Source: Bryobacteraceae bacterium (GTDB taxonomy: Bacteria > Acidobacteriota > Terriglobia > Bryobacterales > Bryobacteraceae). From it: DNA of 64,000 nucleotides. The stretch's first letter is position 1. Each line of letters starts with the position of its first letter. Below, piece by piece: positions 18,170 through 59,482 of the stretch. Below the pieces are notes generated by a model that was not told where the DNA came from, ran no database searches, and was given only the letters and a program-made list of their open reading frames with translations. The stretch lies in the NCBI GenBank assembly GCA_035602155.1, contig DATNMW010000096.1:41319-105318 (forward strand). The letters are read 5' to 3'. A program made the position numbers and the translations under genes.

Positions 18170-18776
18170 TGGTGGAACTGGCCTCGCGTACGGGCGATAG
18201 CCTGCCCGGCGATCCGGATTCGGGCGCGCTCAACATATATCTGATGAAGCGGCGGACCGAAGACCCGTGCATTACTCCGATCTGTCGCTGGCGGTGGTGA
18301 AGCTGATGGGGCCGGGCGAGTATGTGCTGGAGCGCCCCGGGGAGGCCGCGGTCGGGCACTTCGTCCTGGCCGTTCACGATTACACCCACTCGACGGCGCC
18401 CAACCGGCGCTTCGCCGATCTGGTGTCGCAGCGCCTGGCAAAAAGCGGTGCTCGCCAAGCAACCTTCGCCCTCCGGGGACGCCGAGTTGGATGGCGTGGC
18501 CCGCAATTGCACGTTGCGGGAGGACGCCGAGCGCAAGGTCGCGAGGGCTATGAACAAGCGGATCGCGGCCGTCGCCATGCACAGCCGCATTGGCGAGGTC
18601 TTTCCGGAGGTGGTCACCGGGGTTACGCCGAAAGGCACGTTCGTGCGAGCCTTGTCGCCGCCCGTAGAAGGACGGCTGATGCGCGGCGAACATGGGTTGG
18701 ACGTGGGCGACCAGATCCGCGTAAAGCTGTTGAATACCGACCCGCGCGCGGCTTCACCGACTTCGGCCGGTCGTAG
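18170..18776 (+). pseudogene. Diverged duplicate of the 3-prime ~600 bp of the RNB exoribonuclease gene
   Basis: Collinear with 15957..16562, roughly nine of ten positions identical by eye. It has at least three 1-nt indels and splits into track ORFs 18267..18776 and 18322..18834. The homology ends at the former stop codon. Confidence 0.9.
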
Positions 18777-29954: not shown

Positions 29955-30039
29955 GCTGGCGCCCCGCGCGGTAACGCAAACAGTGTATTCTCAAGGAAGG
30001 AGCGCAGGTCATGGCAACCGCAACTCTGGACTGGTCCCA

Positions 30040-30285
30040 ATGCCCCGCCGTAGAAGCGTACCGGGACGGTTGAGTGGAGCATGGGTGTTTCGCGATACCC
30101 GTATGCCCGTCTCCGCCGTATTTCAAAACCTTGAAGCCGGAGCCACCATCGAAGAAATCATCGAGCAGTTCGACATCACGCGGGAACAGATTAATGCGGT
30201 ACTTGAATTTGCCGCACGTAGCCTTGACCCGCTTCCCTTCGCCATCCCTGCCGCCGACACTCCCGCGGATGCGCACACTTTTTGA
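30040..30285 (+). CDS. DUF433-family antitoxin-like protein
   Basis: GRLSGAWVFRDTRMPVSAVFQNLEAGATIEEIIEQF-DITREQINAVLEF is the DUF433 pattern. The start is uncertain: an upstream ATG at 30010 in another frame (MATATLDWSQCPAVE...) suggests a possible 1-nt frameshift. Confidence 0.65.
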   Translation: MPRRRSVPGRLSGAWVFRDTRMPVSAVFQNLEAGATIEEIIEQFDITREQINAVLEFAARSLDPLPFAIPAADTPADAHTF

Positions 30286-30595
30286 CCATGTAACGCCTCG
30301 CGGCATTGCCCGGTTCCTTCCGGGCCACACCGTTACAAAAGCCAAAGACCAGGGGTGGGATAATCTGACCAACGGCGACCCGCTGGCCGGAGCGGAGCGC
30401 GCCGGCTTCGATGTGCTTCTTACCGCCGACAAAAATATCCGTCATCAACAGAACCTAACGGGCCGCCGCATAGCCCTTGTGGTGTTAAGCACGCCGCAAT
30501 GGCCGCTTGTTCGGCTGCACCTCGATATCATTGCCGCCGCCGTGAATGCGGCTACGCCCGGCAGCTATACCGAGGTGAACATCCCTAATGAGTAA
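30269..30595 (+). CDS. DUF5615 (PIN-like/Mut7-C-like) toxin-like protein
   Basis: MRTLFDHVTPRGIARFLPGHTV...GFDVLLTADKNIRHQQNL.... It overlaps the DUF433 gene by 17 nt, the classical DUF433-DUF5615 pairing. Confidence 0.65.
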   Translation: MRTLFDHVTPRGIARFLPGHTVTKAKDQGWDNLTNGDPLAGAERAGFDVLLTADKNIRHQQNLTGRRIALVVLSTPQWPLVRLHLDIIAAAVNAATPGSYTEVNIPNE

Positions 30596-31059
30596 GGCCG
30601 GCGTAACTCGCAGTCCCTTCGCTCTGGGTTGATTGTGCCCGAGAAATCTGCCCCGGTCAGCGCTACCTTTGGTTAGTGCCGCTTGGGGCGTGTGGTTAGT
30701 ACTCACGTGTCGCTCCCCCCGGCGCGAACTCGGCACAGGGTACGAACTACGCCAACTTCCTCGTACTCGCCGAAGCCAATCAACTGAAATTCCTTTGTGG
30801 TAACTGCGGCGCCCCTTGGATGCCAAGCCCCGGTGATCAGCGGATTTACGCCGTCAATTTGCGTAGGCTCATAACGGAGCCCTGAGCGGCCGCTTCGGTC
30901 TGCCCTTCGCCGAACAACGCCCTTCATGTCCGTCTATCCAAGAGGCCGACGAGTCCGCAAATCTAAGGTCGACTGAGTCCGGTCTTTCGTTCGGTCTCCG
31001 CAGAGACGTTGGCGGGCGCAGCGCCTGCCCCGGGTGATTCCACGCTATCCTGGCTGGGT

Positions 31060-32419: not shown

Positions 32420-32496
32420 GTAGTGGGTCAATTTGCTTTGTGGGGCAGGTTGGCAACCTGCGGGCCGATTGTCAATCGGCCCAGTTTGCGCCGATT
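32420..32496 (+). repeat. Solo left end (77 nt) of the GTAGTGGGTCA-type inverted-repeat element, containing two REP-like hairpins
   Basis: Identical over 77 nt to 58549..58625. Internal palindromes are caggttggcaacctg and ggccgattgtcaatcggcc. No matching right end was found nearby. Confidence 0.7.
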
Positions 32497-32598
32497 CCCA
32501 TATTCCGGCTCCGCAGACCGGCGGAGGTATCCGCGGCAGGAGGCTGCGGCAATGGGCTAAAGCCAGCGCAGTCCAGGGAACAGGCCACGACGCCTCTC

Positions 32599-34573: not shown

Positions 34574-34744
34574 TTAGCTTTCTTCCGCCGTTATGCGGAA
34601 CCTCTCTATATTCACCATAACCATGCGATTTTGGGCCGCGCGTTACCAAGCCGTGCAATCTGTTGAAACTAAAGACGGCCCTATTCCGCTCGATGTGTGA
34701 CCGATCGATTGCCGTGCGCTTTGGTAAACTCGAAACGGGCTAGA

Positions 34745-35365
34745 ATGGCGAATCAAGGATCGGATCGACGGGCGGTGTTGCAGATGCTTGCCAAGGCCGC
34801 CGCTGTCAGCCAGTTCCCGGGCTTCAGCCGCTGGGCATTTGGCCAACAGCATGAGCATGCGGGCAATGCCGTTCCGCCGCCGCGCGTAGCGAACTACCAG
34901 CCATCGTATTTTTCGGCTTCCGAATATCGCACAATCGATATTTTGACCGGCCTGATCATTCCCCCGGACGAAAGCCCCGGCGCCCAAGAGGCGGGCGTTA
35001 GTGAGTTCATCGACTTCCTGGCGGCGCATGGCGAAGAAGAGATCCGGCAGCCGATGCGCGACGGCCTGAAATGGCTGGATGCTACCGCGAAAAAGAGCCA
35101 TGGCGCAGGCTTTGCCGGACTCTCACTCGAGCGGCAAACCGAGATTCTGAAGAGGGTCGCATATCGGGATAGCCCGGCGCAAGGAGACATCGAGGGGCGA
35201 GCGTTCTTCCGCCTGATTCGGCGCTACACGGTGATGGGCTACTACACCAGCCGCGCCGGGCTGAGTGAGTTGGATTATCCCGGTTTGCGGCTTTATACGG
35301 AGTCTCCGGCTTGTCCGCATACCGGCGATCCGGAACACCGGCGCCTTCCGCCGCCGAGAGTCTGA
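34745..35365 (+). CDS. Gluconate 2-dehydrogenase subunit 3 family protein (Tat signal)
   Basis: MANQGSDRRAVLQMLAKAAAVSQFPGF. The motif ...GAQEAGVSEFIDF... is typical of the small subunit partnering GMC-type dehydrogenases. Confidence 0.7.
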   Translation: MANQGSDRRAVLQMLAKAAAVSQFPGFSRWAFGQQHEHAGNAVPPPRVANYQPSYFSASEYRTIDILTGLIIPPDESPGAQEAGVSEFIDFLAAHGEEEIRQPMRDGLKWLDATAKKSHGAGFAGLSLERQTEILKRVAYRDSPAQGDIEGRAFFRLIRRYTVMGYYTSRAGLSELDYPGLRLYTESPACPHTGDPEHRRLPPPRV

Positions 35366-35366
35366 A

Positions 35367-37028
35367 ATGCAAAATCGGATCTACGACGTAATTGTGATTG
35401 GGACAGGCGCGGGCGGCGGGATGGCCATTCACACCCTTTGCCAGGCGGGCGCGAAGGTTTGCGCACTCAACGCCAGCCGCCGCCTGAATCCGGGCACGGA
35501 CTTCCGCAACCATCGACAACCCTACGATATGCCGTTCCGCGGGTTTGGCGAGCCGGCCAAGCGCAAGAAATGGATCGGCTACATGGATAACGAGTACACC
35601 GAGGGCATTTGGGAGCACGAGATCGTTTTCACCACGGCTCCGGGAACCGAATGGACTTGGCGGCGCTGCTTCGCCGTTGGCGGCAAAACCAACTTCTGGG
35701 GCCGGTCGTCGGCGCGTTTCAGCGATATCGATTTCCGCGCGGCCAGCCGCGACGGATATGATGTCGATTGGCCCATTACGTACGCGGAAATCGCGCCTTA
35801 CTACAGCCGCGTGGAGCGCATGATTGGTGTCGCGAGCACGGTTCAGAACCGCCCCAGCAATCCGGACGGCGAGTATCTGCCGCCGATGAACTTCCGCTGC
35901 ATCGATCGCATTCTCGAGAGCGGCGCGCGCAAGGTCGGCATTCCGTATCTGCCCGACCGCATCGCGCAGCTTACTGTGCCGCATGCCGGTCACCCTTCTT
36001 GTCATTACTGCGCGAATTGCACGGAAGGCTGCGACGTGGGCGCATTTTTCTCAACGCCGTGGTTCTTTCTGCCCGCGGCGGAGAAGAGCGGCAACCTGGA
36101 TCTGCGCACCAATGCGCTCTGCAAGAATATTTTGGTGGATGAGAATGGCCGCGCGAAAGGCGTGGCTTATATCGATCGGAATACCAGGCAAGAGTTCGAG
36201 GTGTATGGCAAGAACGTGGTGCTGGCGGCATCGTGCGTGGAGTCCGCGCGCATTGTTTTGAATTCGAAGTCGCGTCATTGGCCGGATGGAATCGCCAATT
36301 CGAGCGGGCAAGCCGGCCGCAACCTGTGCGACCATCTGTACGGCACCACGGCGCGCGGCTATTTTCCGCAACTGCTGGGGCAGCCGAGCTTTCCCGATAA
36401 TGTCTCTTCGAGTACGGTGGCCTGGATGCCGCGCTGGCAGAATCTGGACAACCCGCGCCAGGAGAAGTTCATTCGCGGCTATTCGGTTTACCCGGACGGC
36501 GGGTGCGGCGAGTTTCCCTGGTACTTCGACGAGATCGAAGGTTTTGGCCGCGATTACAAGCGCCAGATCAAGCGGCGCTATCCTACGCCGGTCAGTTTTT
36601 ACATTCAGGCGCCCACGCAGCGCAGCGATTCGAACTATGTGGATATCGATCCGGCGGTGAAGGACGCTTACGGCATCCCGGCCGCGCGGCTGCATTTTGC
36701 ATGGGATAAGAATACTCTGCTGATGTGGGAACACGGCAAGCATTCCTGCGAGCAATTGCTGCGTGCCAGCGGCGCGGAATATTTGGGGGCCGCGGCGGAG
36801 CCGGATACGCCGGGCACCAGTTTGCATGAGACGGGAACTCTGCGCATGGGGAACGATCCCAAGCGGTTTGTGACGAATCGCTTCGGACAGGCGCACGACG
36901 TTCCTAATTTATACGTGTGCGATGCCAGCGTGTTTCCGAATTGCACGGATAAAACTACTACGATTTCGATTCTCGCGTTTACGCTGCGTACGGCGGAGTA
37001 TCTGGTGGAGAATTTGAAGAAGGGTTAG
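35367..37028 (+). CDS. GMC-family FAD-dependent oxidoreductase
   Basis: Start MQNRIYDVIVIGTGAGGG (Rossmann GxGxxG). C-terminal LHETGTLRMG...NLYVCDASVFP. The ATG follows the upstream gene stop by 1 nt. Confidence 0.9.
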   Translation: MQNRIYDVIVIGTGAGGGMAIHTLCQAGAKVCALNASRRLNPGTDFRNHRQPYDMPFRGFGEPAKRKKWIGYMDNEYTEGIWEHEIVFTTAPGTEWTWRRCFAVGGKTNFWGRSSARFSDIDFRAASRDGYDVDWPITYAEIAPYYSRVERMIGVASTVQNRPSNPDGEYLPPMNFRCIDRILESGARKVGIPYLPDRIAQLTVPHAGHPSCHYCANCTEGCDVGAFFSTPWFFLPAAEKSGNLDLRTNALCKNILVDENGRAKGVAYIDRNTRQEFEVYGKNVVLAASCVESARIVLNSKSRHWPDGIANSSGQAGRNLCDHLYGTTARGYFPQLLGQPSFPDNVSSSTVAWMPRWQNLDNPRQEKFIRGYSVYPDGGCGEFPWYFDEIEGFGRDYKRQIKRRYPTPVSFYIQAPTQRSDSNYVDIDPAVKDAYGIPAARLHFAWDKNTLLMWEHGKHSCEQLLRASGAEYLGAAAEPDTPGTSLHETGTLRMGNDPKRFVTNRFGQAHDVPNLYVCDASVFPNCTDKTTTISILAFTLRTAEYLVENLKKG

Positions 37029-37132
37029 GGAGCGGGATGTCGGCCGGTGCGATCCTGTGTCTCTCACATCCCCTGTTCCGAAGCGCGCCCGCGTCTCGGC
37101 TACCGCAATCGGCGTGGCGGCGGCCGTGATGC
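36912..37132 (+). repeat. Direct repeat copy 1: GMC gene 3-prime end plus the start of the downstream lysozyme-like gene
   Basis: Collinear with 40853..41128. It is diverged and lacks a ~54-nt block present in copy 2. The homology ends near 37132, where AT-richer island DNA begins. Confidence 0.85.
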
Positions 37133-37572
37133 AGTCCAAGGATAAGCACAGCTCCAGCATATGGACTTGCCTCTCGCCGTTCGGGAAGATGGCTATCTGA
37201 CTTATAAGGATTAGTCCGGGCTCCCTTTCAGAACAATTGGCTGCAATTTTGTTCCCGTGCATGGATGCTGAAGGGCGTAGTCGAGAAAATCAAAGACAAC
37301 GTAACGATCGCTGCGGACGCGATCACATAGCAAAGGAGGGTGTCCGGGGCGATGTCCACACCAGGACGATTGACGGGTACTGGGGCCCTCTGAAGCGGGC
37401 ATTATAGGCAGCCTCCACCAAGCCTGCACCGTTACCTGTCCGAATTAGGAGCAGCGCTCCCGTATGCGGAATTGACCGGAAAACTATCGGACGGCGAATC
37501 CAACAGGACTAGGGGTATCCCGGCAATAATACAGCACCAGTGCCCTTGCCGATTTTTGTTAACGTCCGGTGC

Positions 37573-37612
37573 TTGACAGGGGCCTGCCCATTGTTTATAT
37601 TAATGTTAACAT
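37573..37612 (+). promoter_or_regulatory. Near-consensus sigma-70-type promoter plus 10-bp palindrome upstream of the HigB/Gp49-like toxin gene
   Basis: TTGACA (37573..37578), a 17-nt spacer, then TATATT (37596..37601). Palindrome atgttaacat at 37603..37612, 15 nt before the ORF start at 37627. Confidence 0.5.
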
Positions 37613-37626
37613 GAAGGCGTGGCTGA

Positions 37627-38016
37627 ATGCGGAGACCGCTCGCTTATAACGGACATCGATACGGGATAGCATATGCGGTTTGCCTGGACAGGACTTCGCC
37701 CGGAGAAGAATTTTACGATGCCTTGATGGACACAGACAAGGCGAAGCTCAATAAGCTCTTTGAATACTTGGGGGATCACGGCGCGATTCGTAATGAAGAG
37801 AAGTTCAAGAAAGTGTCGGAGACATTTTTCGAGTTCAAGAGCCATCAAATCCGCATGCCGTGTTACTTCAGGACCGATGCCATTGTGGTAATAACACACG
37901 GTTTTATTAAGAAGAAAGACAAGATGCCGCCCGCTGAACTTAGGCGCGCGGAACGTATCCGAGATGAGGACAATGAGAATGAGCAACAAGAAGGCGAACG
38001 CCGCGACGATTCATAG
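37627..38016 (+). CDS. Gp49-like / HigB-type RelE-superfamily toxin
   Basis: 129-aa ORF. ...SPGEEFYDAL...KAKLNKLFEYLGDHG...FKKVSETFFEFKSHQIRMPCYF...VVITHGFIKKKDKMPPAELRRAERI is the phage Gp49/DUF891 pattern. The toxin lies upstream of the antitoxin, as in higBA. Confidence 0.7.
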   Translation: MRRPLAYNGHRYGIAYAVCLDRTSPGEEFYDALMDTDKAKLNKLFEYLGDHGAIRNEEKFKKVSETFFEFKSHQIRMPCYFRTDAIVVITHGFIKKKDKMPPAELRRAERIRDEDNENEQQEGERRDDS

Positions 38017-38398
38017 CGACAAGTTCCAGGAGTTTATCGCCGACGACAAGAGGCGTCTCCTCTACGAAAGAGAATCTCTGGCTTTTGACGCCGCAGAAAT
38101 GATCGCGCATCTGATGACCGGGAGGAAAATGAACAAGGCTCAACTTGCGCGTGCAATCGGCAAGTCGAGAGCTTATGTGACTCAACTCCTTAGCGGATCG
38201 CGAAATATGACGATCCACACGCTGGCAGACCTGGGACTCGCTCTCGGATATCGTTTTGAGTTGAAGGCCCGCGAGTGCAAGGCCGACAATACCCATACTG
38301 AAGCGCAGGTTGAAGTTAGTCGAACGTCTCCCATTGCGATCGTGACGCATCATCCAGCGAGGCCGCGAGAAACCTCCGCCATACGACCGGGTGAATAG
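37964..38398 (+). CDS. XRE-family HTH antitoxin (HigA-like)
   Basis: The HTH is MNKAQLARAIGKSRAYVTQLLSGSRNMTIHTLADLGLALG. It overlaps the toxin gene. An alternative start is at MSNKK (37979). Confidence 0.75.
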   Translation: MRTMRMSNKKANAATIHSDKFQEFIADDKRRLLYERESLAFDAAEMIAHLMTGRKMNKAQLARAIGKSRAYVTQLLSGSRNMTIHTLADLGLALGYRFELKARECKADNTHTEAQVEVSRTSPIAIVTHHPARPRETSAIRPGE

Positions 38399-39233
38399 AA
38401 ACAATCGAGGAAGATAGGTCCCGCGAGCGTGGTGCGTACCCCTGAAATACTGACGATGGCGCAGTCGTGGCGCCCTTCGGCCACTGCGCGGCTGGCTGCG
38501 TAAGAATCTGCGGGTTATCTCGACGCCACTTCCATACGTCGATGAGGAGCTTCGCGGTCTCGCTTATCATTGCTTTCGTGCTGTCCATCAAGCCCCCAAG
38601 AGTCTCAACGGCGTCCTCGGCAAGAACCAACGTTTGAAGCGGATCTCGGGTTGACGTCATCGGTGTCTCTCGCCAGACCTCAACGTCAGACATGCTCGGG
38701 TTTCTGGGAAGATAGGTCAGTCGGCGGGCGCGCAACACCTGATCTCCATCCGGGCCAAGTATCTGAGGTAGCTTCGGAACAAACTGGCCGCTTTCAAGCC
38801 TACGTCCGCGGTGAACGAGCATGTTTCTGAAATCCAGCGCCCATTGCAGCCATCCATCCGGGCCGACAGATGCGATAACTTCGCTGAATTTCCTATAGAA
38901 GTCGGCCTGCACCTTCTCTCCGTCAGTCGTACCTTGGCCGATCTTTGTGAAGAATTCCCGAATCTTTCTGCCGAGATCGGCAGTAAGAATCGGCGTAGGA
39001 ATCGCAATCACGCCGATGATCGCGCCCGCCAGACAGTCCAATGCCGCGGAGAGCGCTCGCGCCATGCCGGCGATGTGCATGACGACCATTTCACGGCCGA
39101 GTTCTTCCAGTGCATTGCGGGGGCGCGGTAAAACCACATCAAACTGCCCGTCACGGTTTTGCACGATATCTGCATACCGCTCGCTATCACGTTCGGCACA
39201 ATCCTGATATTCAAGCCTGCAGCGCAGCCTCAA
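38316..39233 (-). CDS. Hypothetical protein with a possible HEPN-type R-x4-H motif
   Basis: 305-aa ORF with a TTG start. The motif LDFRNMLVHRG matches RNxxxH seen in HEPN/Abi RNases. Nothing else is recognisable. Confidence 0.4.
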   Translation of the reverse strand: MRLRCRLEYQDCAERDSERYADIVQNRDGQFDVVLPRPRNALEELGREMVVMHIAGMARALSAALDCLAGAIIGVIAIPTPILTADLGRKIREFFTKIGQGTTDGEKVQADFYRKFSEVIASVGPDGWLQWALDFRNMLVHRGRRLESGQFVPKLPQILGPDGDQVLRARRLTYLPRNPSMSDVEVWRETPMTSTRDPLQTLVLAEDAVETLGGLMDSTKAMISETAKLLIDVWKWRRDNPQILTQPAAQWPKGATTAPSSVFQGYAPRSRDLSSSIVSIHPVVWRRFLAASLDDASRSQWETFD

Positions 39234-39591
39234 TCATGTTTGCTGATAGACTGGCGACGCACGCATATAACTGATCGCTGATCGGTATCCGGCGGCTGGT
39301 GCCAGGATGCGGTGCCCACCACCCGATCCCATACGGACTGTGCTCTGCAAAATCGTCAAGGATTAGGGCATCCAGTTCCCTCCATCGCCGCATGGGAAGG
39401 CCGAGCGCCGACACGGCCCGATCATTAGTCGAACATTCGCCTTTCCCGTACGGCTCGCTCAAGCGGGCAAAGTCTGATGCCTTCATTGACACATTGTCCC
39501 GCATCCGAGTCACGCAGATAATGGTGTACGCATCCGACGCCTGCGAAGGTCCCCTCGTTGTAACCGCCCGAAGGCTTCTGGTCGCCATCAT
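39211..39591 (-). CDS. Hypothetical protein, possibly the N-terminal part of the downstream ORF
   Basis: 126-aa ORF overlapping the 305-aa ORF by 23 nt in a different frame. No motif recognised. Confidence 0.3.
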   Translation of the reverse strand: MMATRSLRAVTTRGPSQASDAYTIICVTRMRDNVSMKASDFARLSEPYGKGECSTNDRAVSALGLPMRRWRELDALILDDFAEHSPYGIGWWAPHPGTSRRIPISDQLYACVASLSANMIEAALQA

Positions 39592-39971
39592 TCTCCGCCC
39601 GCGTTGCTCTCCGGCATCCGCTCGGGATATGCTTATTGTATTTTCGCTGGACCGGCGGCGCGACCGAAGCTTCAGTGAAGGTCATTGGCGAGGCCCGGCG
39701 CTCGATTCCTGCTGACGGCACACAGCTTCATCTTAAGGACCTCGGGGCGCCGCTGGTTCCTGGCAAACTCTTTCGCCGTGTACGGCTCGCGCCAGTTGAT
39801 GTGAATGGCCTCTAACGGAATGTGGGTCTTTCCCGAGTGAATAGTCGGCAATCCGGAAGTAGTCGACAAGGAGGGGTCGTCGGCATCTCGAAGGAGTGGC
39901 TCATAGCGTCCAAACCCGCGCGGAATGGGTGCTCTTTCAAGGCGCCGTGAACATTGTCTCCATGACCCGTC

Positions 39972-40289
39972 CTAGCTTGCCAACTCCTCAAACTGCGTGA
40001 TCCGCACTTTTCGATCTTTGAACACCGCGCGGATCTCGAGCTGGCCGCCCATTGCTTCAATGTAATCGGCCAGGGTGCTGACGCAGATGTCGGACCGGTG
40101 CTCAATCTTCGAAACCTCTCCCTGATTGACGCCGAGAATCTCGGCGAGTTGCAGTTGCGTCATGTGCTGCGCCTTGCGCAATTGATCGAGCGGCATTGCG
40201 GCCAGACTCTTCCGGAACCGGCTCTCAATCCTCCGCTGCCGCTCAGGCGGCATCGCTTCCAGCAATTCACGAAAATTGCGAGTGGGCAT
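39972..40289 (-). CDS. XRE-family HTH antitoxin (HigA-like)
   Basis: The HTH is MTQLQLAEILGVNQGEVSKIEHRSDICVSTLADYIEAMGG. The stop of the upstream toxin remnant abuts its start. Confidence 0.8.
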   Translation of the reverse strand: MPTRNFRELLEAMPPERQRRIESRFRKSLAAMPLDQLRKAQHMTQLQLAEILGVNQGEVSKIEHRSDICVSTLADYIEAMGGQLEIRAVFKDRKVRITQFEELAS

Positions 40290-40636
40290 TAAATGCTTCC
40301 CTCCTTCTTGAGCTCAAGCAGGTGTCGTTCAAAAAGCCGGTCTGCGACCGGCACAAACTTCTCATACCAGCGGTCGTCGCCGGTTTTCTCGCCCCCGATC
40401 AAGAGGATGGCCGAGCGGAGCGGGTTGAATGCATACAGCGTTCGCAGCGGCCTCCCAGCGCTCTGGGTCCGCCACTCGCGCATCTGCGCATAACGTGAAC
40501 TGCCGACTTTTGAGCTGTGCGGGAACCGAGGGCGGGACCGAATTCGATGAGATGCCGAACGGAATGCGCCACATCATCCTGTTGTTCCTCGGAGAGGGCG
40601 TCCCACCAATTCCAGAATTCATCGGTGAACTCGACT
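40289..40636 (-). pseudogene. HigB/Gp49-like RelE-superfamily toxin, multiply frameshifted
   Basis: One frame encodes VEFTDEFWNWWDALSEEQQDDVAHSVRHLIEFGPALG. Another encodes FPHSSKVGSSRYAQMREWRTQSAGRPLRTLYAFNPLRSAILLIGGEKTGDDRWYE. The N-terminal start is separated by an in-frame stop. Confidence 0.6.
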
Positions 40637-40760
40637 TACACACCTACAGTATGCCATATACAGAATAATCCCAGGGACCGGGGGCGCTACGCCACGGGGT
40701 CGAGAAACCGATCCACTTGACCGACGCGCTTCTGAACGCTGTATCCTCAAATCGTCACAC

Positions 40761-40850
40761 ATGAACAAGCTGTTAGCGCTCAACCGCGGCGAAATTGCGG
40801 TCCGCATCCTGCGCGCGGCCAATGAACTGGGCCTGCGCACCGTGGCCGTA
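40761..40850 (+). pseudogene. 5-prime fragment (~30 codons) of a biotin carboxylase / pyruvate carboxylase gene
   Basis: MNKLLALNRGEIAVRILRAANELGLRTVAV is the canonical biotin-carboxylase N-terminus (ANRGEIA.R..RA). It is joined directly to the GMC 3-prime fragment at ~40851. Confidence 0.65.
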
Positions 40851-40965
40851 TGTCTGCGATGCCGGCGTGTTCCCGAACTGCACGGATAAGACTACTACGA
40901 TTTCGATCCTCGCGTTCACGCGGCGTACGGCGAAGTATCCGGTGGAGAGTTTGAAGAAGGGTCAG
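40851..40965 (+). pseudogene. Diverged duplicate of the 3-prime end of the GMC oxidoreductase gene
   Basis: Encodes VCDAGVFPNCTDKTTTISILAFTRRTAKYPVESLKKG versus VCDASVFPNCTDKTTTISILAFTLRTAEYLVENLKKG in the intact gene. The former stop TAG is CAG here. Confidence 0.85.
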
Positions 40966-40993
40966 GGAGCGGGATGCCCGCCGGTGCTATCCT

Positions 40994-41557
40994 GTGTCTC
41001 TGACATCCCCAGTACCGAAGCGCGCCCGCGGCCGGCGATCGAACTCGTCACGAAGTCCGGCGAGGCGCTTGGCACTGCTTTTCCTCTCGGCTACGGCAAT
41101 CGGCGTGGCCGTGGTCGTGCTGCAGGCCCAATACACCGTGACGCTGCAATCGCCGTTCCGCATTCGATTCCAATGGCCTGTGGTCATTGCCCCGCGCATA
41201 TCGGCGGAGGAGGCAGGCGCGGCCCAGGCGGATCAATTGGGCCGGAGGTTGACGGCGTACCAGCAATACGCCTGCAACAAATTCGGACCGGCATGCCGCG
41301 TCGCGTTAGCGGTGCAACGCGCCGAAAACCCGCGCGGCGCCTGCGAGATCTATCATTACAACTCCGACGGGACCCTGGATTGGGGCTATTTCCAGATCAA
41401 CACGGTGCACTTGAAGCGGGCCGGAGTGAACCTGCGGGACCTGCTGGACTGCAAAGCGAACATCGACTTCGCGTACAAGCTGTACATGGAGAGGGGCTTT
41501 GTACCGTGGACCACGTTCAATAGCGGCGCTTACCGGCAATTCCTGCGAGGATTCTGA
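40994..41557 (+). CDS. Lysozyme-like / lytic transglycosylase-like protein with N-terminal membrane anchor
   Basis: 187-aa ORF. TM segment LALLFLSATAIGVAVVVL. The motif DGTLDWGYFQINTVHL is the glycosidase-like catalytic region. Its first ~35 codons are duplicated and truncated at 37037..37132. Confidence 0.65.
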   Translation: MSLTSPVPKRARGRRSNSSRSPARRLALLFLSATAIGVAVVVLQAQYTVTLQSPFRIRFQWPVVIAPRISAEEAGAAQADQLGRRLTAYQQYACNKFGPACRVALAVQRAENPRGACEIYHYNSDGTLDWGYFQINTVHLKRAGVNLRDLLDCKANIDFAYKLYMERGFVPWTTFNSGAYRQFLRGF

Positions 41558-48458: not shown

Positions 48459-51200
48459 TTATCCGGCCGAGCGGGCCAGTGTCCCTAGCTCCCCTGCTCT
48501 TATGGTACGCCTATCCGGCGCGCCGCGGCGGTCCCGCGGTATTCCATCCAAGGCGGCATCCAGCAGGAACGGAGCGGATGTGCCTGCAACGAGTCGATGC
48601 AGAAAGAGGGCGATCCCCGACGCTCCCGTGCCGAAGTCGCAACTGATGCGGACCAGTTCATGCCCGGGGAATGCGATACCCGTTGGGCGTTGTATCCCAA
48701 ACAATGCGATTCCGGACGCCACCTTTTCGGCTTTTTCCCGATAGGCCGCGCCATTCGCCTTGTCGAAGGACTCCATGTCCAGCAGGAAGTCGCCGAGTCC
48801 GGCCAAGCCGAAGAAGCGTCCAGGATAGATGGTATACTTTCGATCGCAATCCACCGCGATACGCCGCAGCACGGACGCATATTCATCGTCGGCCAGCACC
48901 TTCTGATAGCGGAGGAGCGCCGTTCCGACGCCCGCGCCACCCCAGCGCCAGTAGGGCACGCGCGTGCGGGACGCCTGCGAGATCTTCCAGGTGAGGCCGC
49001 CATCGGCTGTTTCTACTCCATTGCCGATGTCGAAGTCCATGCCTCCCTTGCCCACCTCCAGATAACGCTCCTGGCCGGTGAGCCCGTATAGATACAGGAG
49101 GAAGAGGGCGACGCCGCTGGCTCCATGGGCCAGTCCGTAGGCGGTATCGTCGTCCCACGGCCAGGAAAATCCCACGTCTTCCTCGTGCTTGGAGCGAATC
49201 AGGTAGTCGCCAGCCTCGGCGGCCTTCGCCAGGTGGAACTCGTCCTGCGTGTGAACGAACGCCTTCAATTGCGCCAACCCCCAACCAGCGGCGCCATTAT
49301 ACAGATCCGGCGAATCGAAGCGCAGCGGGTGATCGGCGCCGGCGCGCAGCAGTTCAAGCCCGCGTTCCTCGCGGCCGATCTCGAGCAGGGTCCAGCCAAT
49401 TCCCGATGTGCCGGCATACAGGCCGGGAGGGAAGGCTTCAGCGGTTATCTGCTTGCCGCAAATCCAATCCATAATCGCGGGCGAAACCGTACCCGTGATC
49501 TGTTTCATGCAATATGCCACGCCGCACGCCCCGTGCGCGAGGCTCAGCGGATTAGTGGCGTAGAGGGCCGGATCCGCGGGAAACAGGCGGTCTACGCGGT
49601 CGTAGCTCGCCGTCCCGGCCACATATTCCATGGCGCTTTCAGCCATTTTTCGCAACTCCCCGTAGACCGGAGCCTGGTGCGCCGGCGGCGCGGAGGCATG
49701 GCTGTCGCTTTCCAGAATCTCGATAACGCGCGCCGGGGTGATCCGGTCCGCCCGCTGTACGGCCATCAATCCTTGAATGCACCGAGGGATGCTCGCGGGC
49801 AAACCAAGATCGCGGCTCAGGGCTTCCAGAAAGCGTCCGCACGCCCCGGTATCCAGCGCCATCATCCCGTTGATCGGCATCAGCGCGGCGAGCATGAGCG
49901 CGCCGAGTCCGAAGTAGTCGTCCTCGCGCTCGGAATACGAGCTGGCCAAATCCGCCGAGGCGAAGCCGGGGGTGAACAGGGGAGTAGGGGGGTCGATGCC
50001 GATCTCATGAGCGGCTTCAAAATCGATGAACTTGACGTCCTCTCCGTCATTGATGACGATCAAGTTGTAATGGGAAATGTCGGTGAAGACGATACCGCGG
50101 CTGTGCAGAATTTCGAGGTTGCGTGCGATGCGCGAGAACACCCGGCAAAACCTATCCACGAATTCCTGGGCATCGGCGGCGGTCGGGGCGGTGCGCAATG
50201 CGAGGGAGTGCGCGCTGTTGTAGAATCGAAGCAACGCGCCGTCGATAAACTCTTCCACCAGATAGCAATGCTCCCAATCGCTGAAGAAATCGAGCGGCTG
50301 AGCGGCGATTCCGGTATCCGCCAAGCGCGTCAGAAGGCGGTGCTCCTTCTTGAGCAAGTCCACACCGTCGGCGCCGTTCGGATAGACATTCGAGAGCGGC
50401 CGCGCCTCTTTGATCACCACTTCCCGTCCAGTCTGGGTATCGGTGGCCAGATAGACGCCGCCACTGCTCGAGAACGCCAAGGCGGAGTTGACCACATAGC
50501 GTCCGTTTTTCAACGTGTTCTCGCCACTCTTTAACGTGTCTTCGCCGGCGCTATCGCCCGCGGCGCCGCCCACAGGATCCGGAGCCCACTCATGAGAGAC
50601 ACTGTAGGGCATACGCCGGTCCCGGATGGCCGTCCCGTCGGGCGCCTGGATGGTAAGTACGCGCTCGCCCCGCGAGTTCAGTGCATCGGTCCGCATGATC
50701 CCGCCGTACCGATAGTACAGGACCCGGCTGTCCTTGTAGCGCTTGTCCGAGAGAATGTACGGTCCGCGAAAGCCTACTAGAACGTTGTGCAACTCCTCAA
50801 TCAGCGAGAGAAAGGCCGGCGTGTCGGCGGGATAGATGGTGATAAACTTTCCGGCTCCGCTGCGCGGCCAACGCTTGGAGTTCTGCAGATAGACGATGGT
50901 CTTATCCAACGCGAACTTGAACGCCGTCTTGCGAGCCGTGAGGACCGGAATCACCGTGGCGAGTATGGCGGCGGCATTGGTAACCGTTGCGGAGATATGA
51001 ATCTTCCAACCCTGCCGCGGCGGGGCAATCGACGGCTCGGAGCAGTGAGACCAGATGCCGTTGCGCTCCATGCTCCAGCCTTCCGGCAAAAAACGCCGCG
51101 CGACTTCAAGCAGGCCGCCCGCATCGGGTTCGTAGCAGTCCATGGGTTCGTAGAAATCCCTGGAGCCGAATAAGTACTGAAAGACCTGAATATTAGACAT
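48459..51200 (-). CDS. lanKC: Class III lanthionine synthetase (LanKC: phospho-Ser/Thr lyase - kinase - zinc-less LanC-like cyclase)
   Basis: 913-aa ORF. Lyase-domain motifs WKIHISAT and GKFITIYP. Kinase motifs GGVYLATD...[25 protein letters not shown] and KFIDFEAA. The C-terminal LanC-like repeats are [38 protein letters not shown] and GLAGLGDF, without the WCxG / CHG zinc ligands. Confidence 0.9.
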
Positions 51201-51321
51201 TTTGAAATAATTCCGTTTTACCGTGCATCCTCACTGGTTTCCATGGGAGAGCGAACCCCAGAATCGCGCCTTTGCCTTTGTGGAAAGGCCCGCGCCCTTC
51301 ACTCGCATCCGCTGGAGCAGA

Positions 51322-51365
51322 CCCGGCGGCGGGAGCTCGCTGGTTTGCTCCCGTCTGCCTCCGGG
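51322..51365 (-). terminator. Conserved GC-rich hairpin 24 nt downstream of lanA1 (candidate attenuator or processing structure)
   Basis: Minus-strand cccgg-aggcagac-GGGAGC-aaaccagcga-GCTCCC-gccg-ccggg. It is homologous to the structure after lanA2, with a compensatory stem change. Confidence 0.5.
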
Positions 51366-51388
51366 CCGATTCCTCATCGCGGTTGTCG

Positions 51389-51553
51389 TCAGTAACCGGC
51401 CGCGATATAACCGCCCATGGCCGCGAAACAGGCCGCCGCGCTGTTGGTGGAGCACGCACAATTGTGGGCGCTCGACGTGCTGTTGCCTACCTCTGCCATT
51501 GGACCGCTGTTCTGGTCGTCCGGCAACATTTGAAGTGCTAATACTCGATTCAT
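51389..51553 (-). CDS. lanA1: Class III lanthipeptide precursor peptide 1 (54 aa)
   Basis: MNRVLALQMLPDDQNSGPMAEVGNSTSSAHNCACSTNSAAACFAAMGGYIAAGY. RBS GGAGAA lies 5 nt upstream of the ATG. Leader VLALQ motif. The core has two S-x2-S-x3-C motifs. Confidence 0.85.
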   Translation of the reverse strand: MNRVLALQMLPDDQNSGPMAEVGNSTSSAHNCACSTNSAAACFAAMGGYIAAGY

Positions 51554-51583
51554 AATCGTTCTCCTTAGTCTTATCTGGGAAGA

Positions 51584-51627
51584 CCCGCCGGCGGGGGCAC
51601 ATTGTGCCGCCCCCGTCTGCTTCCGGG
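51584..51627 (-). terminator. Conserved GC-rich hairpin 24 nt downstream of lanA2
   Basis: Minus-strand cccgg-aagcagac-GGGGGC-ggcacaatgt-GCCCCC-gccggcggg. Same position and architecture as the hairpin after lanA1. Confidence 0.5.
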
Positions 51628-51651
51628 CCAATTTGCGGCTAACGGCCGTCG

Positions 51652-51816
51652 TTAATAACCGGCGGCGATGAAGCCGCCCATGGCCGCAAAACATGCCGCG
51701 GCGCTGTTGGTGGAGCAAGCGCAATTGTGGTCGCTCGACGTGCTGTTGGCCAGCTCCGCCATTGGGCCGCTGTTCTGGTCGTCCGCCAACATCTGAAGTG
51801 CTAATACTCGATTCAT
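51652..51816 (-). CDS. lanA2: Class III lanthipeptide precursor peptide 2 (54 aa)
   Basis: MNRVLALQMLADDQNSGPMAELANSTSSDHNCACSTNSAAACFAAMGGFIAAGY. RBS GGAGAA. Differs from lanA1 at 5 of 54 residues. The tandem unit period is 263 nt. Confidence 0.85.
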   Translation of the reverse strand: MNRVLALQMLADDQNSGPMAELANSTSSDHNCACSTNSAAACFAAMGGFIAAGY

Positions 51817-51842
51817 AATAGTTCTCCTTGTTTCTTCTTTTA

Positions 51843-52366: not shown

Positions 52367-52483
52367 TGTAAGGTATTGCACAGAAACGGCCGCGGCCGGC
52401 ATGCTACCATTGTGACGTAAATAACAGTACCCAAACATCTTGATTGGCGAGTGCCAGCCTCGACGTTTTCGAGTGTTCCGACA

Positions 52484-54259
52484 ATGCCTGCGCACCGCTG
52501 GTTACTTAAAACTCTTCGGCCATTTCGCGCCAGTCAGTTGTTGATTACCTTCTCCCTGCTTTCGGCGGGACTGCTATCCTCGGTCGATCCTTTGATAATC
52601 AAATGGCTCATCGATCACGGCTTCCGCGGCGCTCGGGTGCGGTCTATTTTGATGGCGTTAGGTCTCTTTGTGCTGGCCTATTCAGTGCGGTTGACCTTAC
52701 TAATGATAGGTAACATGGCTGTCGCTGTAACCTGTCAGCGCGTGATGCTGCGTTTACGCCTGCAGCTTGCCACAAAGCTGACCCAGTGCGGGGCGGGGTA
52801 TTTCGACCGCCAACCGGTGGGCGATTTGGTTTACCGGCTGGAGGGCGACATCGAACAGGTCGGACATCTGGCCACGGACGTGCTCCCTTCGCTGCTGAGA
52901 GTGGCGGCCAGCGCCCTGTTAGTGGCCGGCATCATGGTGAGTATCGATCCGATGCTGGCTTGCGTGACACTTCCTTTCTTCCCGCTCTTTCTGGTGTTGC
53001 GCGCCCGCTTCCGGCCGAAGCTTGAGCGGGCGGCGGAAGCCACGCGAGACGTGGCCGGCCAGCGAAGCAGCTATTTGACCGAGTGGCTGGCAGGGGTCGT
53101 GCAGATACAGTTGCTGGGAGCGGAACGAACCTTCCTGCGCAAGCTCTTCGCGCTGTGCAGCAGTACGATCCGCGCCGCGGTAAGTCAGCGGAGAACGGAA
53201 CTGCTGTATGCCATCGGATCGATGGGCCTTATCGCGCTGGCCACAATCGCGGTTTTGGGCGCGGGTGCGGAGCGGGTTCTGACGCATGCGCTGACTCTGG
53301 GTGGGTATGTGGCGTTCTACACCTACCTGACCCGGCTGTTCGAGGCGCTGAGTGCCAGCGTAGAGACATATTGGCAGTTGAAGCGGGCTACCGGCAGCGT
53401 TCGCCGGCTGATGGAGCTGGAAGACGTGGACATCCCGATCGTGGACGTCAAGTCGGCTCCTTCGCTGCCCGCAGGCGAGGTCGGCGGCCTGGCGTGCACC
53501 GGAGTCGATTTCGGTTATCCGGCGGGACGAATCGTGATTCAGGGTGTATCCCTTCAGGTAAACCGCGGAGATCGCGTGGCCATAGTGGGCCGTAGCGGAA
53601 GCGGGAAGAGCACGCTGGCGAAGTTGCTGGTCCGGCTGTACGATGTAAGCGGAGGCGCGATTCTCCTCGACGGCGAGGACATCAGGGATCTGCGGCTGCG
53701 GAGTGTCCGCAGTTCGATCGCACTGGTGTCGCAGAACCCCACGTTGTTCGCCGGCACGCTGGCGGAGAATGCGCGGCTGGGAAGCCCGGACGCATCCCTC
53801 GAGGATATGAACCGGCTGGCAGTCCTGACGTGTTTCGATGAAGTCCTGCAAAGATTCCCGGACGGTTGGCGGCACGTGCTCGGGCCGGCCGGGGCCGGCT
53901 TGTCGGGCGGCGAGAAGAAGCGGCTGGCGCTGCTTCGGGGGCTCCTGCTGAATCGGGAGGTTCTGGTTCTGGACGAAGTGACCTCCGAGCTGGATCCGGC
54001 CGTCGAAAGGGTCCTGCTTTCCCACCTGGACGAATACGCCCATGACAAGGCCATCGTGCTGATCACACATCGCACCGCGGCGGCCCTTTGGGCCGACCGC
54101 ATCATCGCTCTCCAGGATGGGCGGGTGACGCGAGTGTGGCGACGTTCCGAGCTGGACGAGGACGACCCGCAACTCGAGCGGAAGCTTTGGGGCGAGGACC
54201 TGGCGATCCCCACGGAAGAGGCCTACCGGCCTGAAAGCGAACTGTGCTCAATTTTGTAA
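52484..54259 (+). CDS. ABC exporter, fused permease and ATPase (MdlB/MsbA-like), no peptidase domain
   Basis: The track ORF starts at 52451 (GTG); ATG at 52484. Six predicted TM helices, then Walker A GRSGSGKST, signature LSGGEKKRLAL and Walker B LVLDEVTSELD. Confidence 0.85.
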   Translation: MPAHRWLLKTLRPFRASQLLITFSLLSAGLLSSVDPLIIKWLIDHGFRGARVRSILMALGLFVLAYSVRLTLLMIGNMAVAVTCQRVMLRLRLQLATKLTQCGAGYFDRQPVGDLVYRLEGDIEQVGHLATDVLPSLLRVAASALLVAGIMVSIDPMLACVTLPFFPLFLVLRARFRPKLERAAEATRDVAGQRSSYLTEWLAGVVQIQLLGAERTFLRKLFALCSSTIRAAVSQRRTELLYAIGSMGLIALATIAVLGAGAERVLTHALTLGGYVAFYTYLTRLFEALSASVETYWQLKRATGSVRRLMELEDVDIPIVDVKSAPSLPAGEVGGLACTGVDFGYPAGRIVIQGVSLQVNRGDRVAIVGRSGSGKSTLAKLLVRLYDVSGGAILLDGEDIRDLRLRSVRSSIALVSQNPTLFAGTLAENARLGSPDASLEDMNRLAVLTCFDEVLQRFPDGWRHVLGPAGAGLSGGEKKRLALLRGLLLNREVLVLDEVTSELDPAVERVLLSHLDEYAHDKAIVLITHRTAAALWADRIIALQDGRVTRVWRRSELDEDDPQLERKLWGEDLAIPTEEAYRPESELCSIL

Positions 54260-54687
54260 CGGTCTTGCGCGTATTGCCCGGCGGCGCTTTGCTACTCAAG
54301 CATTCGGAGGATTCCCGGATCCAGAAAGTGCTGGCGCTGATCGCGGATGCGCCCGTACAGGAATGTGCTGGACTGGCGGGACAAGTACACCTCAGCACGA
54401 ACCGTCTGGTGCACTTATTCAGGCATGAGACCGGAGTGGGCTTAGGCTTGGTCCTGAGGGACGCCCGGCTGCGGTATTCGGCCCACCTCCTGTCTTCAGG
54501 GAAGGAGCCGGAAAAGGAGATCGCCTTTCTGTCCGGCTATCGGCACTTATCCAGCTTCGTCCGGGCCTTCACGCTACGGTACTTCGAGTCTCCCCGTTCC
54601 TACCGGCGCAATCCGCTTGTGCTGGTCATGTCCCCGCTCGGCGAGGGAGTCGTTGCGGAGGCCCTGGCGGTCGCCGCGCACGCCTAG
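54244..54687 (+). CDS. Short AraC-family HTH transcriptional regulator (DNA-binding domain only)
   Basis: IQKVLALIADAPVQECAGLAGQVHLSTNRLVHLFRHETGVG......IAFLSGYRHLSSFVRAFTLRYFESPRSYRR. It overlaps the ABC gene end by 16 nt. The start codon is uncertain. Confidence 0.7.
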   Translation: MLNFVTVLRVLPGGALLLKHSEDSRIQKVLALIADAPVQECAGLAGQVHLSTNRLVHLFRHETGVGLGLVLRDARLRYSAHLLSSGKEPEKEIAFLSGYRHLSSFVRAFTLRYFESPRSYRRNPLVLVMSPLGEGVVAEALAVAAHA

Positions 54688-54710
54688 CGCGCGCCCGAGC
54701 GAAGCACACC

Positions 54711-56090
54711 ATGAGCGAACAAACCTGCTCTATTTACGGGGACGAAGCCGCCAACCATCCCGCGCCGGCCGGCAGGCTCCAAGTGCCCGTGGAGTATTTT
54801 CGGTTGCCCAACGGCCTGGCGGTTGCGCTCTCTCTCGACTGCAGCACTCCGGTGGCGGCTGTTACCGTCTATTATGGCGTCGGATTTCGCCGTGAGCCGC
54901 TGCATCGCGCCGGCTTTGCCCACCTTTTCGAGCACCTGATGTTTCAGGGGTCGCCCAGCCTCCCCAGATCGGAATTCATTCGACTTATCCACGAGTGCGG
55001 CGGCACCGTCAATGGGAGTACGCGCTTCGATTTCACCAGCTTCTATGAAGTGGTCCCGTCAAATGCCCTCCGTACGGTGTTGTGGGCCGAAGCAGACCGC
55101 ATGCGCGGCCTGGCTCTGACGCCGGAGAGCCTGGCCAACCAACAATCGGTCGTGTGCGCCGAAGTGGGCGCCAACATTCACAATCAGCCCTATGGCGGAT
55201 TTCCCTGGTTCGATGTACCTCAAACCGCGAACGTCAATCCGCACAATGCTCACAACTTTTACGGCGAGATTGAAGATATCACCGCCGCCACCCTGACGGA
55301 GGCGGAGGAATTCTTTCGGGAGTTTTACCGTCCCAACAACGCCGCCCTCGCGATCGTGGGCAACTTCGATCCGGCGGCGGTTCGGGAATGGATCGCCGGA
55401 TATTTCGGATCGATCCCGTCCGCGGCGGCGCCGGTTCCCTTCGACGTGAGCGAGCCGCGTCAACTGCGGGAGAGGTACGGGCGGAGGCTGGATCGTCTGG
55501 CGCCCAGTCCCGCCCTCGCCATCGCGTACCACATGCCGGACAGAAACACGGATGAGTACTTCGCGATGGGAGTGCTGGATCATCTTTTGCTTCAGGGAGG
55601 CGACAGCCTGTTTCAAAAGGAGCTGGTCAATCGCCGCGGGATGACCGATCTGGTTCGCGGCGGAATCAATATTCTGGGAACCATGTTCAACTACAACGGC
55701 CCCATGCTATGGACGGTCCACATGTTCCACGATCGCGACGTGCGCGCGGATGACATTCTGGAGGCCGTCGATGGGGTGGTGGCGGGCTTGACGGACGGGG
55801 AGGTTTGCCGGGAAACGCTTGATCGTGCTCTGGTCAAAATGCGTTCCACGCTCTACGACCAGATCGAATCCTCCCACGGCCTGGGTCTCGCCGATATGCT
55901 CGCGGCATTCGCGCTGTTCGACGGCTCTCCGGAACGGATCAATTCGTTGGACGCGCGCTTCCGGTCGGTCACGCCCGCATTGTTGCGCAGGACGGCTGCG
56001 GAGTGCCTTCGCAAAACCAATCGAACGGTCCTCGAAGTCGAGGCGCCGGCGGGTTCGGCTGTTAGACCAATGGGAAAGGAATGCAACTAA
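54711..56090 (+). CDS. M16-family (pitrilysin/insulinase-like) zinc peptidase, catalytic subunit
   Basis: 459-aa ORF with the inverted zinc motif HxxEH in GFAHLFEHLMFQGS and a downstream glutamate region (EFIRLIHECGGTVNGST). Confidence 0.85.
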   Translation: MSEQTCSIYGDEAANHPAPAGRLQVPVEYFRLPNGLAVALSLDCSTPVAAVTVYYGVGFRREPLHRAGFAHLFEHLMFQGSPSLPRSEFIRLIHECGGTVNGSTRFDFTSFYEVVPSNALRTVLWAEADRMRGLALTPESLANQQSVVCAEVGANIHNQPYGGFPWFDVPQTANVNPHNAHNFYGEIEDITAATLTEAEEFFREFYRPNNAALAIVGNFDPAAVREWIAGYFGSIPSAAAPVPFDVSEPRQLRERYGRRLDRLAPSPALAIAYHMPDRNTDEYFAMGVLDHLLLQGGDSLFQKELVNRRGMTDLVRGGINILGTMFNYNGPMLWTVHMFHDRDVRADDILEAVDGVVAGLTDGEVCRETLDRALVKMRSTLYDQIESSHGLGLADMLAAFALFDGSPERINSLDARFRSVTPALLRRTAAECLRKTNRTVLEVEAPAGSAVRPMGKECN

Positions 56091-59275: not shown

Positions 59276-59482
59276 GTGTTGGACGCGGCGAACTGGCATT
59301 GACGCTAGGACCGGTGAACCGAGGTGTAAGGGCGGACGCTACCTTTATAGGCGGACTGCTACTGGCCGGCGGGTGCCTGGCGGTGGTCGGAGTCTAGAGC
59401 GAATGGATGCCAGTGCGCGCGGCGATGCGGGCCATCGGGAACTGCCGACGGCCTAAAAGGCGACAGAATGGGCGGGAGGGTT

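Follow-up and report, generated by a model that had tools for sequence, protein, structure and literature searches.

We analysed a 64,000-nt chromosome segment (the window) from a soil Bryobacteraceae bacterium (Acidobacteriota) and report that its positions 37138-40734 form an eroding, toxin-antitoxin (TA)-rich accessory islet in a variable slot, that is, a locus of an ordinary and known kind. The islet lies between two diverged direct repeats, which are old relics of a duplicative rearrangement and not att sites. Two HigBA modules flank a single frameshifted gene of an unannotated family of ~390-aa proteins (U390), a candidate HEPN-like conflict gene that is dead in this islet.

The islet occupies a variable slot

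The left anchor of the slot is a two-gene unit on the plus strand, encoding a gluconate 2-dehydrogenase subunit-3-like protein (G2DH3; 34697-35365, Pfam Gluconate_2-dh3) and a GMC oxidoreductase (35367-37028, Pfam GMC_oxred_N and GMC_oxred_C), the latter sharing 97% protein identity with its counterpart in the metagenome-assembled genome SPRUCE 555. The 80 related loci are all from the Bryobacteraceae group. The sole stretch of the window that is syntenic with these 80 genomes is 34702-37033, and base-by-base alignment of genome loci puts the end of synteny at 37021-37034. None of the 80 carries the lysozyme-like gene (lyso), the islet or any other downstream gene of the window within 6 kb. 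In the locus L010, GMC is followed by a gene for an FG-GAP protein and then by the pyruvate carboxylase gene (pyc).

A metagenome scan with the lyso protein revealed an empty allele. In this contig (L090), G2DH3, GMC, lyso, 268 nt and an intact pyc follow one another without interruption, which supplies the undisturbed GMC/lyso junction that the initial annotation had proposed to look for in related genomes. This allele and the other genes found 3' of GMC in the 80 relatives mark the islet as accessory and not ancestral, as had been suspected. The islet spans 3.6 kb between the lyso head of the first repeat (edge at 37137/37138) and a pyc head (edge at 40734/40735).

The impression by eye that this DNA is richer in AT is confirmed by the computed profile: the GC content of the islet is 0.559 against a window mean of 0.610, ~5 GC points lower, and values as low occur in just 0.3% of equal-sized windows. 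The dip is strongest at 37138-38398 (0.52-0.53), with a step from 0.52 to 0.57 near 38300, and the other parts of the islet lie at 0.57-0.59.

The flanking repeats are relics of a duplicative rearrangement

Set against L090, the window has the order GMC, lyso head, islet, pyc upstream sequence plus 30 codons, GMC tail, lyso and then unrelated genes. Both repeats lie on the plus strand. Copy 1 (36912-37137) consists of the functional last 39 GMC codons with the stop at 37028, a spacer and a dead lyso head, which belongs to a stub of 47 codons (37057-37200) with an 18-codon in-frame deletion. Copy 2 (40849-41128) consists of a dead GMC tail, in which the stop codon has turned into Gln, the spacer and the head of the whole lyso gene (40994-41557, 187 aa). 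The initial annotation had thus correctly recognized the repeats as copies of the GMC 3' end and the lyso start, with copy 1 completing GMC and truncating lyso and copy 2 doing the reverse; their limits are refined here. The copies are 90% identical over 182 nt (36912-37093 versus 40849-41030) and 86% identical from 37094-37137 to 41085-41128, with 54 extra nucleotides in copy 2 (41031-41084). Overall identity is ~89%, and the pair scores E = 8.7e-65 in a self-blastn.

The intact lyso gene encodes a lysozyme-like or lytic-transglycosylase-like protein with weak matches to Pfam SLT_3 (E = 0.002, under the curated cut-off) and NCBIfam IagB, and this protein is 90% identical to its L090 counterpart. 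Homology with the empty allele stops at 41559, 2 nt past the lyso stop, and the genes that follow (AHSA1, ArsR) are unrelated and not pyc.

The key to the arrangement is the short piece that precedes copy 2. It comprises 26 nt of pyc upstream sequence and pyc codons 1-30 (40735-40849, plus strand), is 90.8% identical to positions 6835-6953 of L090 and 90% identical to L010, and retains 29 of 30 residues of the intact 1145-aa gene of L010. The initial annotation had read it as a 30-codon fragment of a biotin carboxylase gene; the length stands, and the gene proves to be the head of pyruvate carboxylase together with its upstream sequence. No further pyc pieces were found in the 64-kb window. 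Near 40849, pyc codon 30 is joined to GMC codon 550 at a 2-nt microhomology (GT). The head of a downstream gene is thus joined head-to-tail to an upstream one, an arrangement that marks a duplicative rearrangement.

The differences between the copies follow the same division into functional and redundant halves. In the GMC tail the copies differ at 13 of 120 nt. Seven of these differences are synonymous third positions at sites that are also polymorphic in relatives, and the other six are non-synonymous (S>G, L>R, E>K, L>P, N>S and stop>Q) and all specific to copy 2. Across the spacer and the lyso head it is copy 1 that carries almost all of the unique changes, the 54-nt deletion among them, and copy 2 matches L090, which carries the 54-nt segment. 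Each redundant half, GMC tail 2 and lyso head 1, has drifted by ~7-10%, and it is because these halves drifted as pseudogenes that the repeats now differ by ~10%.

The lyso gene itself is found at 70-90% protein identity in >80 metagenome contigs (L090-L169), where its neighbours are always different; GMC and pyc adjoin it in L090 only. Nucleotide homology across these contigs begins 0-11 nt 5' of the start codon and stops at the stop codon (window 40983-41557). The gene is either a member of a multi-copy paralogue family or one that often relocates.

The window holds several other diverged duplications, so that segmental duplication events are common in this genome. A similar direct repeat of 602 nt (15957-16557 and 18172-18771) has 90.7% identity with its copies 2.2 kb apart. 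Further pairs, 58300-59268 with 62275-62814 and 59455-60195 with 60338-61088, are 83-90% identical; among them are two Uma2-family (putative restriction endonuclease-like) genes in tandem. In addition, an 81-nt hairpin-rich intergenic element occurs in direct orientation at 32420-32500 and 58549-58629, 26 kb apart and with 98.8% identity; it may be a repetitive extragenic palindromic (REP)- or miniature inverted-repeat transposable element (MITE)-like repeat.

Two HigBA modules in different states of preservation

The first module is preceded by a low-GC leader (37138-37626, GC 0.53), whose open reading frames (ORFs) gave no Pfam match and no match in any fetched locus. The leader holds the promoter noted in the initial annotation, a near-consensus TTGACA-17-TATATT at 37573-37601 with 11 of 12 consensus positions. 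HigB1 (37627-38016, plus strand, 129 aa) is a toxin of the Gp49/DUF891 family (PF05973; phrog_2523), matching the Pfam profile with E = 5.4e-9 and 36.4 bits (cut-off 23.9) over positions 4-88 of 90, that is, at full length. HigA1 (37979-38398, plus strand, 139 aa) is an XRE antitoxin matching Pfam HTH_3 with 28.4 bits (cut-off 23). Its coding region shares 38 nt with that of HigB1, the antitoxin lies 3' of the toxin and there is one promoter-like site upstream; we infer that the genes are co-transcribed. Both proteins had been called intact, and Pfam agrees, with one qualification for the C-terminal tail of HigA1. Comparison with 54 homologues of 135-150 aa shows that its HTH and conserved N-terminal region are preserved; the final ~28 residues (from ~38312) lack the family tail motif and diverge after '...TEAQ' in the alignment. 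A gross truncation was rejected, as the homologues have the same length and only the variable C-terminal tail has been replaced. The tail is encoded on the strand opposite the 3' end of the 390-aa gene, and the homology of that gene block stops at 38312. Because the departure of the HigA1 tail coincides with the edge of the block, the block junction must lie inside higA1.

The second module, on the minus strand, has fared worse. HigA2 (39972-40289, 105 aa) is intact, with matches to Pfam HTH_37 (E = 1.7e-8) and HTH_3, and its ATG has one base in common with the TAA stop of the upstream HigB2 remnant. HigB2 (40289-40650) is a partial Gp49 pseudogene with at least two frame breaks, in agreement with the multiply frameshifted toxin and intact XRE antitoxin described initially. 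Its in-frame remnant (40289-40483) covers the C-terminal half of Gp49 only (profile positions 40-89), and three-frame translation places the N-terminal part in a different frame, with a stop near the start.

In type II HigBA systems a RelE-fold toxin arrests growth by ribosome-dependent mRNA cleavage and the antitoxin neutralizes it. Both modules resemble these systems in their toxin-first order, in their Gp49 and HTH_3/HTH_37 matches and in their overlapping coding regions (module 1, 38 nt; module 2, 1 nt), and module 1 has its own promoter. They differ from them in that the toxin of module 2 has been lost and the tail of HigA1 is a read-through into the neighbouring block. Scores against the NCBIfam HigA equivalog lie far under its cut-off. 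Judged by its sequence, HigBA-1 is the only plausibly active module, predicted to serve in addiction or stress, and it may stabilize the region; HigA2 is plausibly now an orphan antitoxin or a regulator.

Some 5 kb before the GMC operon, the annotation of an independent assembly (L175) places a DUF433 gene followed by a gene for a 108-aa protein (29972-31000), probably another TA pair. Given this upstream pair, the wider neighbourhood seems generally TA-rich.

Origin of the islet

We consider it probable that the islet arose by illegitimate duplicative recombination in the variable slot, with patchwork replacement and pseudogene drift. The process would have begun in one lineage in which the slot read GMC, lyso, pyc. 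Illegitimate duplicative recombination would have joined pyc codon 30 to GMC codon 550 and so created a second 'GMC tail plus lyso' downstream; in an in-situ version of this step, ~1.1 kb running from the GMC tail through lyso to the pyc head would have undergone tandem duplication. An accessory patchwork of 3.6 kb would have taken the place of most of lyso copy 1 and the spacer downstream of it (originally ~0.7 kb), and pyc after lyso copy 2 would have been replaced in a separate event. The patchwork itself may have been built by further illegitimate joints between a low-GC HigBA module with a strong promoter, the block of the 390-aa gene and the second HigBA module, the arrival of the 390-aa block clipping the tail of higA1. 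The redundant GMC tail 2 and lyso head 1 would then have drifted as pseudogenes.

Some observations weigh against this sequence of events. An in-situ tandem duplication needs an extra, pyc-removing replacement, because AHSA1 and ArsR follow lyso copy 2. The pyc relic has one amino-acid change in 30 codons against ~4 expected from the drift of the GMC tail, a shortfall that is not significant, and no relative with an intermediate state was found.

The first two of these observations lend some credit to a one-step import, by homology-facilitated illegitimate recombination (HFIR) or by Campbell-type integration of a circle, which we regard as possible but rather unlikely. Here a donor carrying 'GMC - lyso head - islet - pyc' would have undergone a homologous crossover in GMC, while an illegitimate joint would have linked its pyc codon 30 with the GMC tail in a recipient carrying 'GMC - lyso - AHSA1...'. 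The duplication and the islet would then stem from a single event, and part of the divergence between the repeats would be divergence between strains. One such event would explain both the absence of pyc after lyso copy 2 and the little-decayed state of the pyc relic. It also suits the synonymous differences of the GMC tail, all seven of which fall at polymorphic sites and four of which copy 2 has in common with L090, and a slot that is clearly exchanged among relatives. However, neither parental haplotype was seen, and a sliding-window comparison of GMC with seven relatives detected no mosaic breakpoint, a comparison of low power as these relatives are ~10% diverged. Moreover, the six unique non-synonymous changes and the loss of the stop in copy 2 would still require long drift afterwards.

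In both scenarios the repeats come from illegitimate and not from site-specific recombination. The novel joints known from tandem duplication or HFIR resemble the one described here, with its pyc head joined to a GMC tail at a 2-nt microhomology and one functional copy kept of each gene. Most described bacterial duplications are recent and unstable. The duplicate around the islet differs in being old (~7-10% drift) and remodelled on both sides.

To read the repeats as the footprint of a site-specific insertion is at odds with the pyc head-GMC tail joint and with the drift of the pseudogene halves. An integrative element or its remnant, with the repeats as attL and attR carrying a replacement gene end, would account for direct repeats around a lower-GC cargo and for a copy 1 that rebuilds the 3' terminus of the target gene, a trait shared by many integrative elements. 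We nevertheless hold this explanation to be very improbable. There is no integrase, excisionase, transposase or recognizable remnant of one between or next to the repeats: no recombinase domain was detected in the ORFs of 37138-40848 or in the genes across 29972-50289, and the ORFs of the unassigned islet stretches contain no transposase or recombinase remnants. There is no tRNA either, Rfam and tRNA scans of the islet and the window having returned nothing. The repeats, ~226 nt long and ~89% identical, have no long identical core. Finally, a relic of pyc, the downstream gene of the empty allele, stands before the right repeat, which an att-type insertion would not yield.

The islet shares much with the defence and TA islets known from hot spots: the flanks are conserved while the cargo varies (an FG-GAP protein gene, lyso alone or this islet), the GC content is lower, and TA modules accompany an orphan gene with no dedicated mobility gene. 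It departs from them in that the right core gene, pyc, is a 30-codon relic, in the drifted partial duplication of the left flank and in a cargo that consists mostly of pseudogenes.

The central gene is a single frameshifted pseudogene

Between the two modules the initial annotation had placed two overlapping ORFs of 126 and 305 aa. These are the pieces of one gene of ~390 codons on the minus strand (38316-39486), with its ATG at 39486, its stop at 38316 and a 2-nt deletion at ~39216. A first search with the 305-aa ORF retrieved 270 homologues, nearly all of 380-390 aa. The intact homologues P0002 and P0003, for example, are 89-90% identical. In a tblastn with P0002, residues 1-90 align in the frame of 39486-39217 and residues 92-390 in another frame at 39215-38319, and nucleotide alignment with four homologues locates the deletion in conserved His-Trp codons (CTGCA--GGCTT).

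The 485 nt upstream of the gene (39487-39971, minus strand) correspond to the unassigned sequence of the initial annotation, which exists as described but is longer than the ~380 nt given for it. They gave no Pfam or Rfam match and are divided into four parts. Next to the gene lies a 55-nt leader (39487-39541) conserved in close homologues. It is followed by a 191-nt segment restricted to the lineage of the window (39542-39732); neither terminal inverted repeats nor a target duplication nor further copies of this segment were found. Next comes a block of 121 nt (39733-39853) that L001 and L003 also have 5' of their 390-aa gene, and a remainder of 118 nt completes the region. The leader of ~50 nt right before the start codon (TCTGCGTGACTCGGATGCGGGACA.TGTGTC.ATG; window 39487-39541, L001, L003 and L170) is kept across different contexts. 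It may be a promoter, operator or 5'-untranslated region element that travels with the 390-aa gene.

Could the central gene still work, by +1 frameshifting at GCU-UGA or as two polypeptides, and the islet be an active defence cassette? The lesion is a single one of 2 nt, the remainder is 87-90% identical to intact homologues, a stop codon directly follows the shift site and the allele is fixed in four assemblies. Yet every homologue examined is uninterrupted, at 380-390 aa; the deletion hits the conserved His90-Trp91 codons within a predicted long helix (residues 63-104); and re-pairing from GCU to CUU would be unfavourable. The lineage-specific 191-nt insertion in the upstream region and the decay of the neighbouring HigB2, which fits a general erosion, point the same way, and we consider a functional gene highly unlikely. 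As a single frameshifted pseudogene, the central gene is not an active anti-phage gene here, and with HigB2 likewise a pseudogene the islet as a whole does not constitute an active defence cassette. The suggestion of a TA-flanked anti-phage cassette thus does not hold at this locus, where the central gene is dead and, in the PADLOC run on the window ORFs that the initial annotation had recommended, matched no model. Nor does the central gene belong to a housekeeping family, a possibility that the initial annotation had listed for checking.

The same 2-nt deletion is present in four independent assemblies, which also bear on the reality of the islet as a whole. Contigs L175, L176 and L177, assembled from three different samples with different pipelines (ENA ERZ28654688, ENA ERZ27314075 and Logan ERR1700691), match the window within 29972-50289 at 99.9-100% and with zero gaps; L175 is 99.966% identical over 20.3 kb, L176 99.905% and L177 100%. 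Each islet junction is spanned in these three assemblies, in stretches of 6.4-20.3 kb, and a further contig of 2.3 kb (L089) is 100% identical to the window. As its structure is reproduced free of gaps in independent assemblies, the islet is not an assembly artefact. The chance that a chimera between strains produced the arrangement is negligible, for although the population behind the window is uncultured and assemblers can be misled by diverged repeats, three assemblies of separate samples and pipelines would have had to give all the same junctions at 99.9-100% and without gaps.

A widespread family without annotation

In a profile search, the 390-aa family extended to 900 clusters at 50% identity with E ≤ 1e-3, 391 of them with E ≤ 1e-30. 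Searches of the central ORFs, of 71 members and of a consensus against Pfam, NCBIfam, PADLOC and PHROGs gave nothing coherent. With PADLOC-DB v2, there was no match for the window ORFs, and the 71 members gave two scattered ones (E ~0.006-0.009). The family was not found in the IMG/VR viral contigs scanned.

In nine of ten distinct contexts, the 390-aa gene adjoins TA, defence or mobility/integrase genes. The neighbours are HigBA in the window, PIN and DUF433/DUF5615 genes in L170 and L006, RelB/YafQ in L179, two tyrosine integrases and a PIN gene in L173 and L174, DUF4365 and a serine recombinase in L005, SLFN_AlbA_2 and a Mu transposase in L003, SIR2_2 in L004, and DUF499 and AAA_15 in L178. 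No partner gene is conserved among these contexts. In loci of distant homologues a gene of unknown function lies directly upstream, encoding 89 aa in L179 (6735-7004, 4-nt overlap) and 264 aa in L006 (6164-6958, 43-nt gap); these may be lineage-specific partners.

An AlphaFold2 (AF2) model built from a shallow alignment was poor (predicted local distance difference test, pLDDT, 67.5), whereas the model from an alignment of 148 sequences reached a pLDDT of 95.6 and a predicted TM-score (pTM) of 0.93. G53, D151, W216, R221, H226 and P264 are invariant in the 148 sequences and N222 is conserved in ≥90%. The motif around R221 reads R-N-M-L-V-H-R-G-R-R, with an R-N-x3-H core. In the model it ends helix 213-226, after which come a loop and a hairpin, and D151 lies in helix 126-161.

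These features recall the HEPN RNases. Their Rx4-6H motif closes helix 3 of a four-helix up-down bundle, the R is typically followed by N, D or H, and helix 2 contributes a conserved acidic residue (Anantharaman et al. 2013, PMC3710099). In the 390-aa family, too, R and H are spaced as in Rx4-6H, and the residue next to the R is polar. In the model its R-N-x3-H, like the motif of HEPN toxins, closes a helix at the C-terminal end and leads into a loop; an upstream long helix bears an invariant acidic residue (D151), the core is all-alpha with long helices, and the neighbourhoods are rich in TA and defence genes. The family differs from HEPN toxins in its much larger size (380-390 aa), its extra conserved N- and C-terminal regions and beta-hairpin inserts, and in having no conserved partner gene and no significant sequence or Foldseek match.

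Direct comparisons do not support a HEPN assignment. Among the 71 members, Pfam gave one HEPN_Apea match at E = 0.064, and the consensus gave none. The profile search against PDB sequences was negative for HEPN, and Foldseek returned nothing with E < 0.01 (best E = 0.15 in PDB and 0.04 in BFVD). Since all sequence and fold comparisons with known HEPN families were negative, the HEPN idea is a lead and not a demonstration. Among the candidates that we rejected, the weak top PDB matches to ClyA-like pore-forming toxins and rhodopsins (TM ~0.3 or less) were judged to reflect generic long-helix similarity, and an XkdH match in the profile search against PDB sequences (E = 0.04) was spurious.

The intact 390-aa protein is most likely a stand-alone conflict effector, in defence or addiction, and given such a role a HEPN-like RNase mechanism stands at a roughly even chance. 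Tentatively, the family could be a new, widespread conflict effector, a so far unrecognized HEPN-like RNase that acts as an abortive-infection or addiction toxin and moves between the TA/defence hot spots of soil Acidobacteriota.

A lanthipeptide locus downstream

On the minus strand, at 48459-51200, the window encodes a class III/IV-type lanthipeptide synthetase (RamC_N, protein kinase and LanC-like domains). It adjoins the lowest-GC spot of the window (51319-51829), a tandem duplication of 250 nt with 83.5% identity, whose copies are possibly precursor peptide genes. Beyond it, 52451-57472 encodes an ABC exporter and two M16 peptidases.

Significance

Verified at the population level, the islet cleanly illustrates how a variable slot can be remodelled with no mobility gene involved, through a duplication joint at a microhomology, patchwork replacement and drift. 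Its main value is as a pointer to the unannotated 390-aa family, which comprises ~900 clusters, has a confident model with no solved homologue and possesses an invariant RNase-like motif. To our knowledge, such defence and addiction systems have barely been explored in Acidobacteriota. In its association with TA, defence and integrase genes, the 390-aa family is a candidate new defence or addiction gene.

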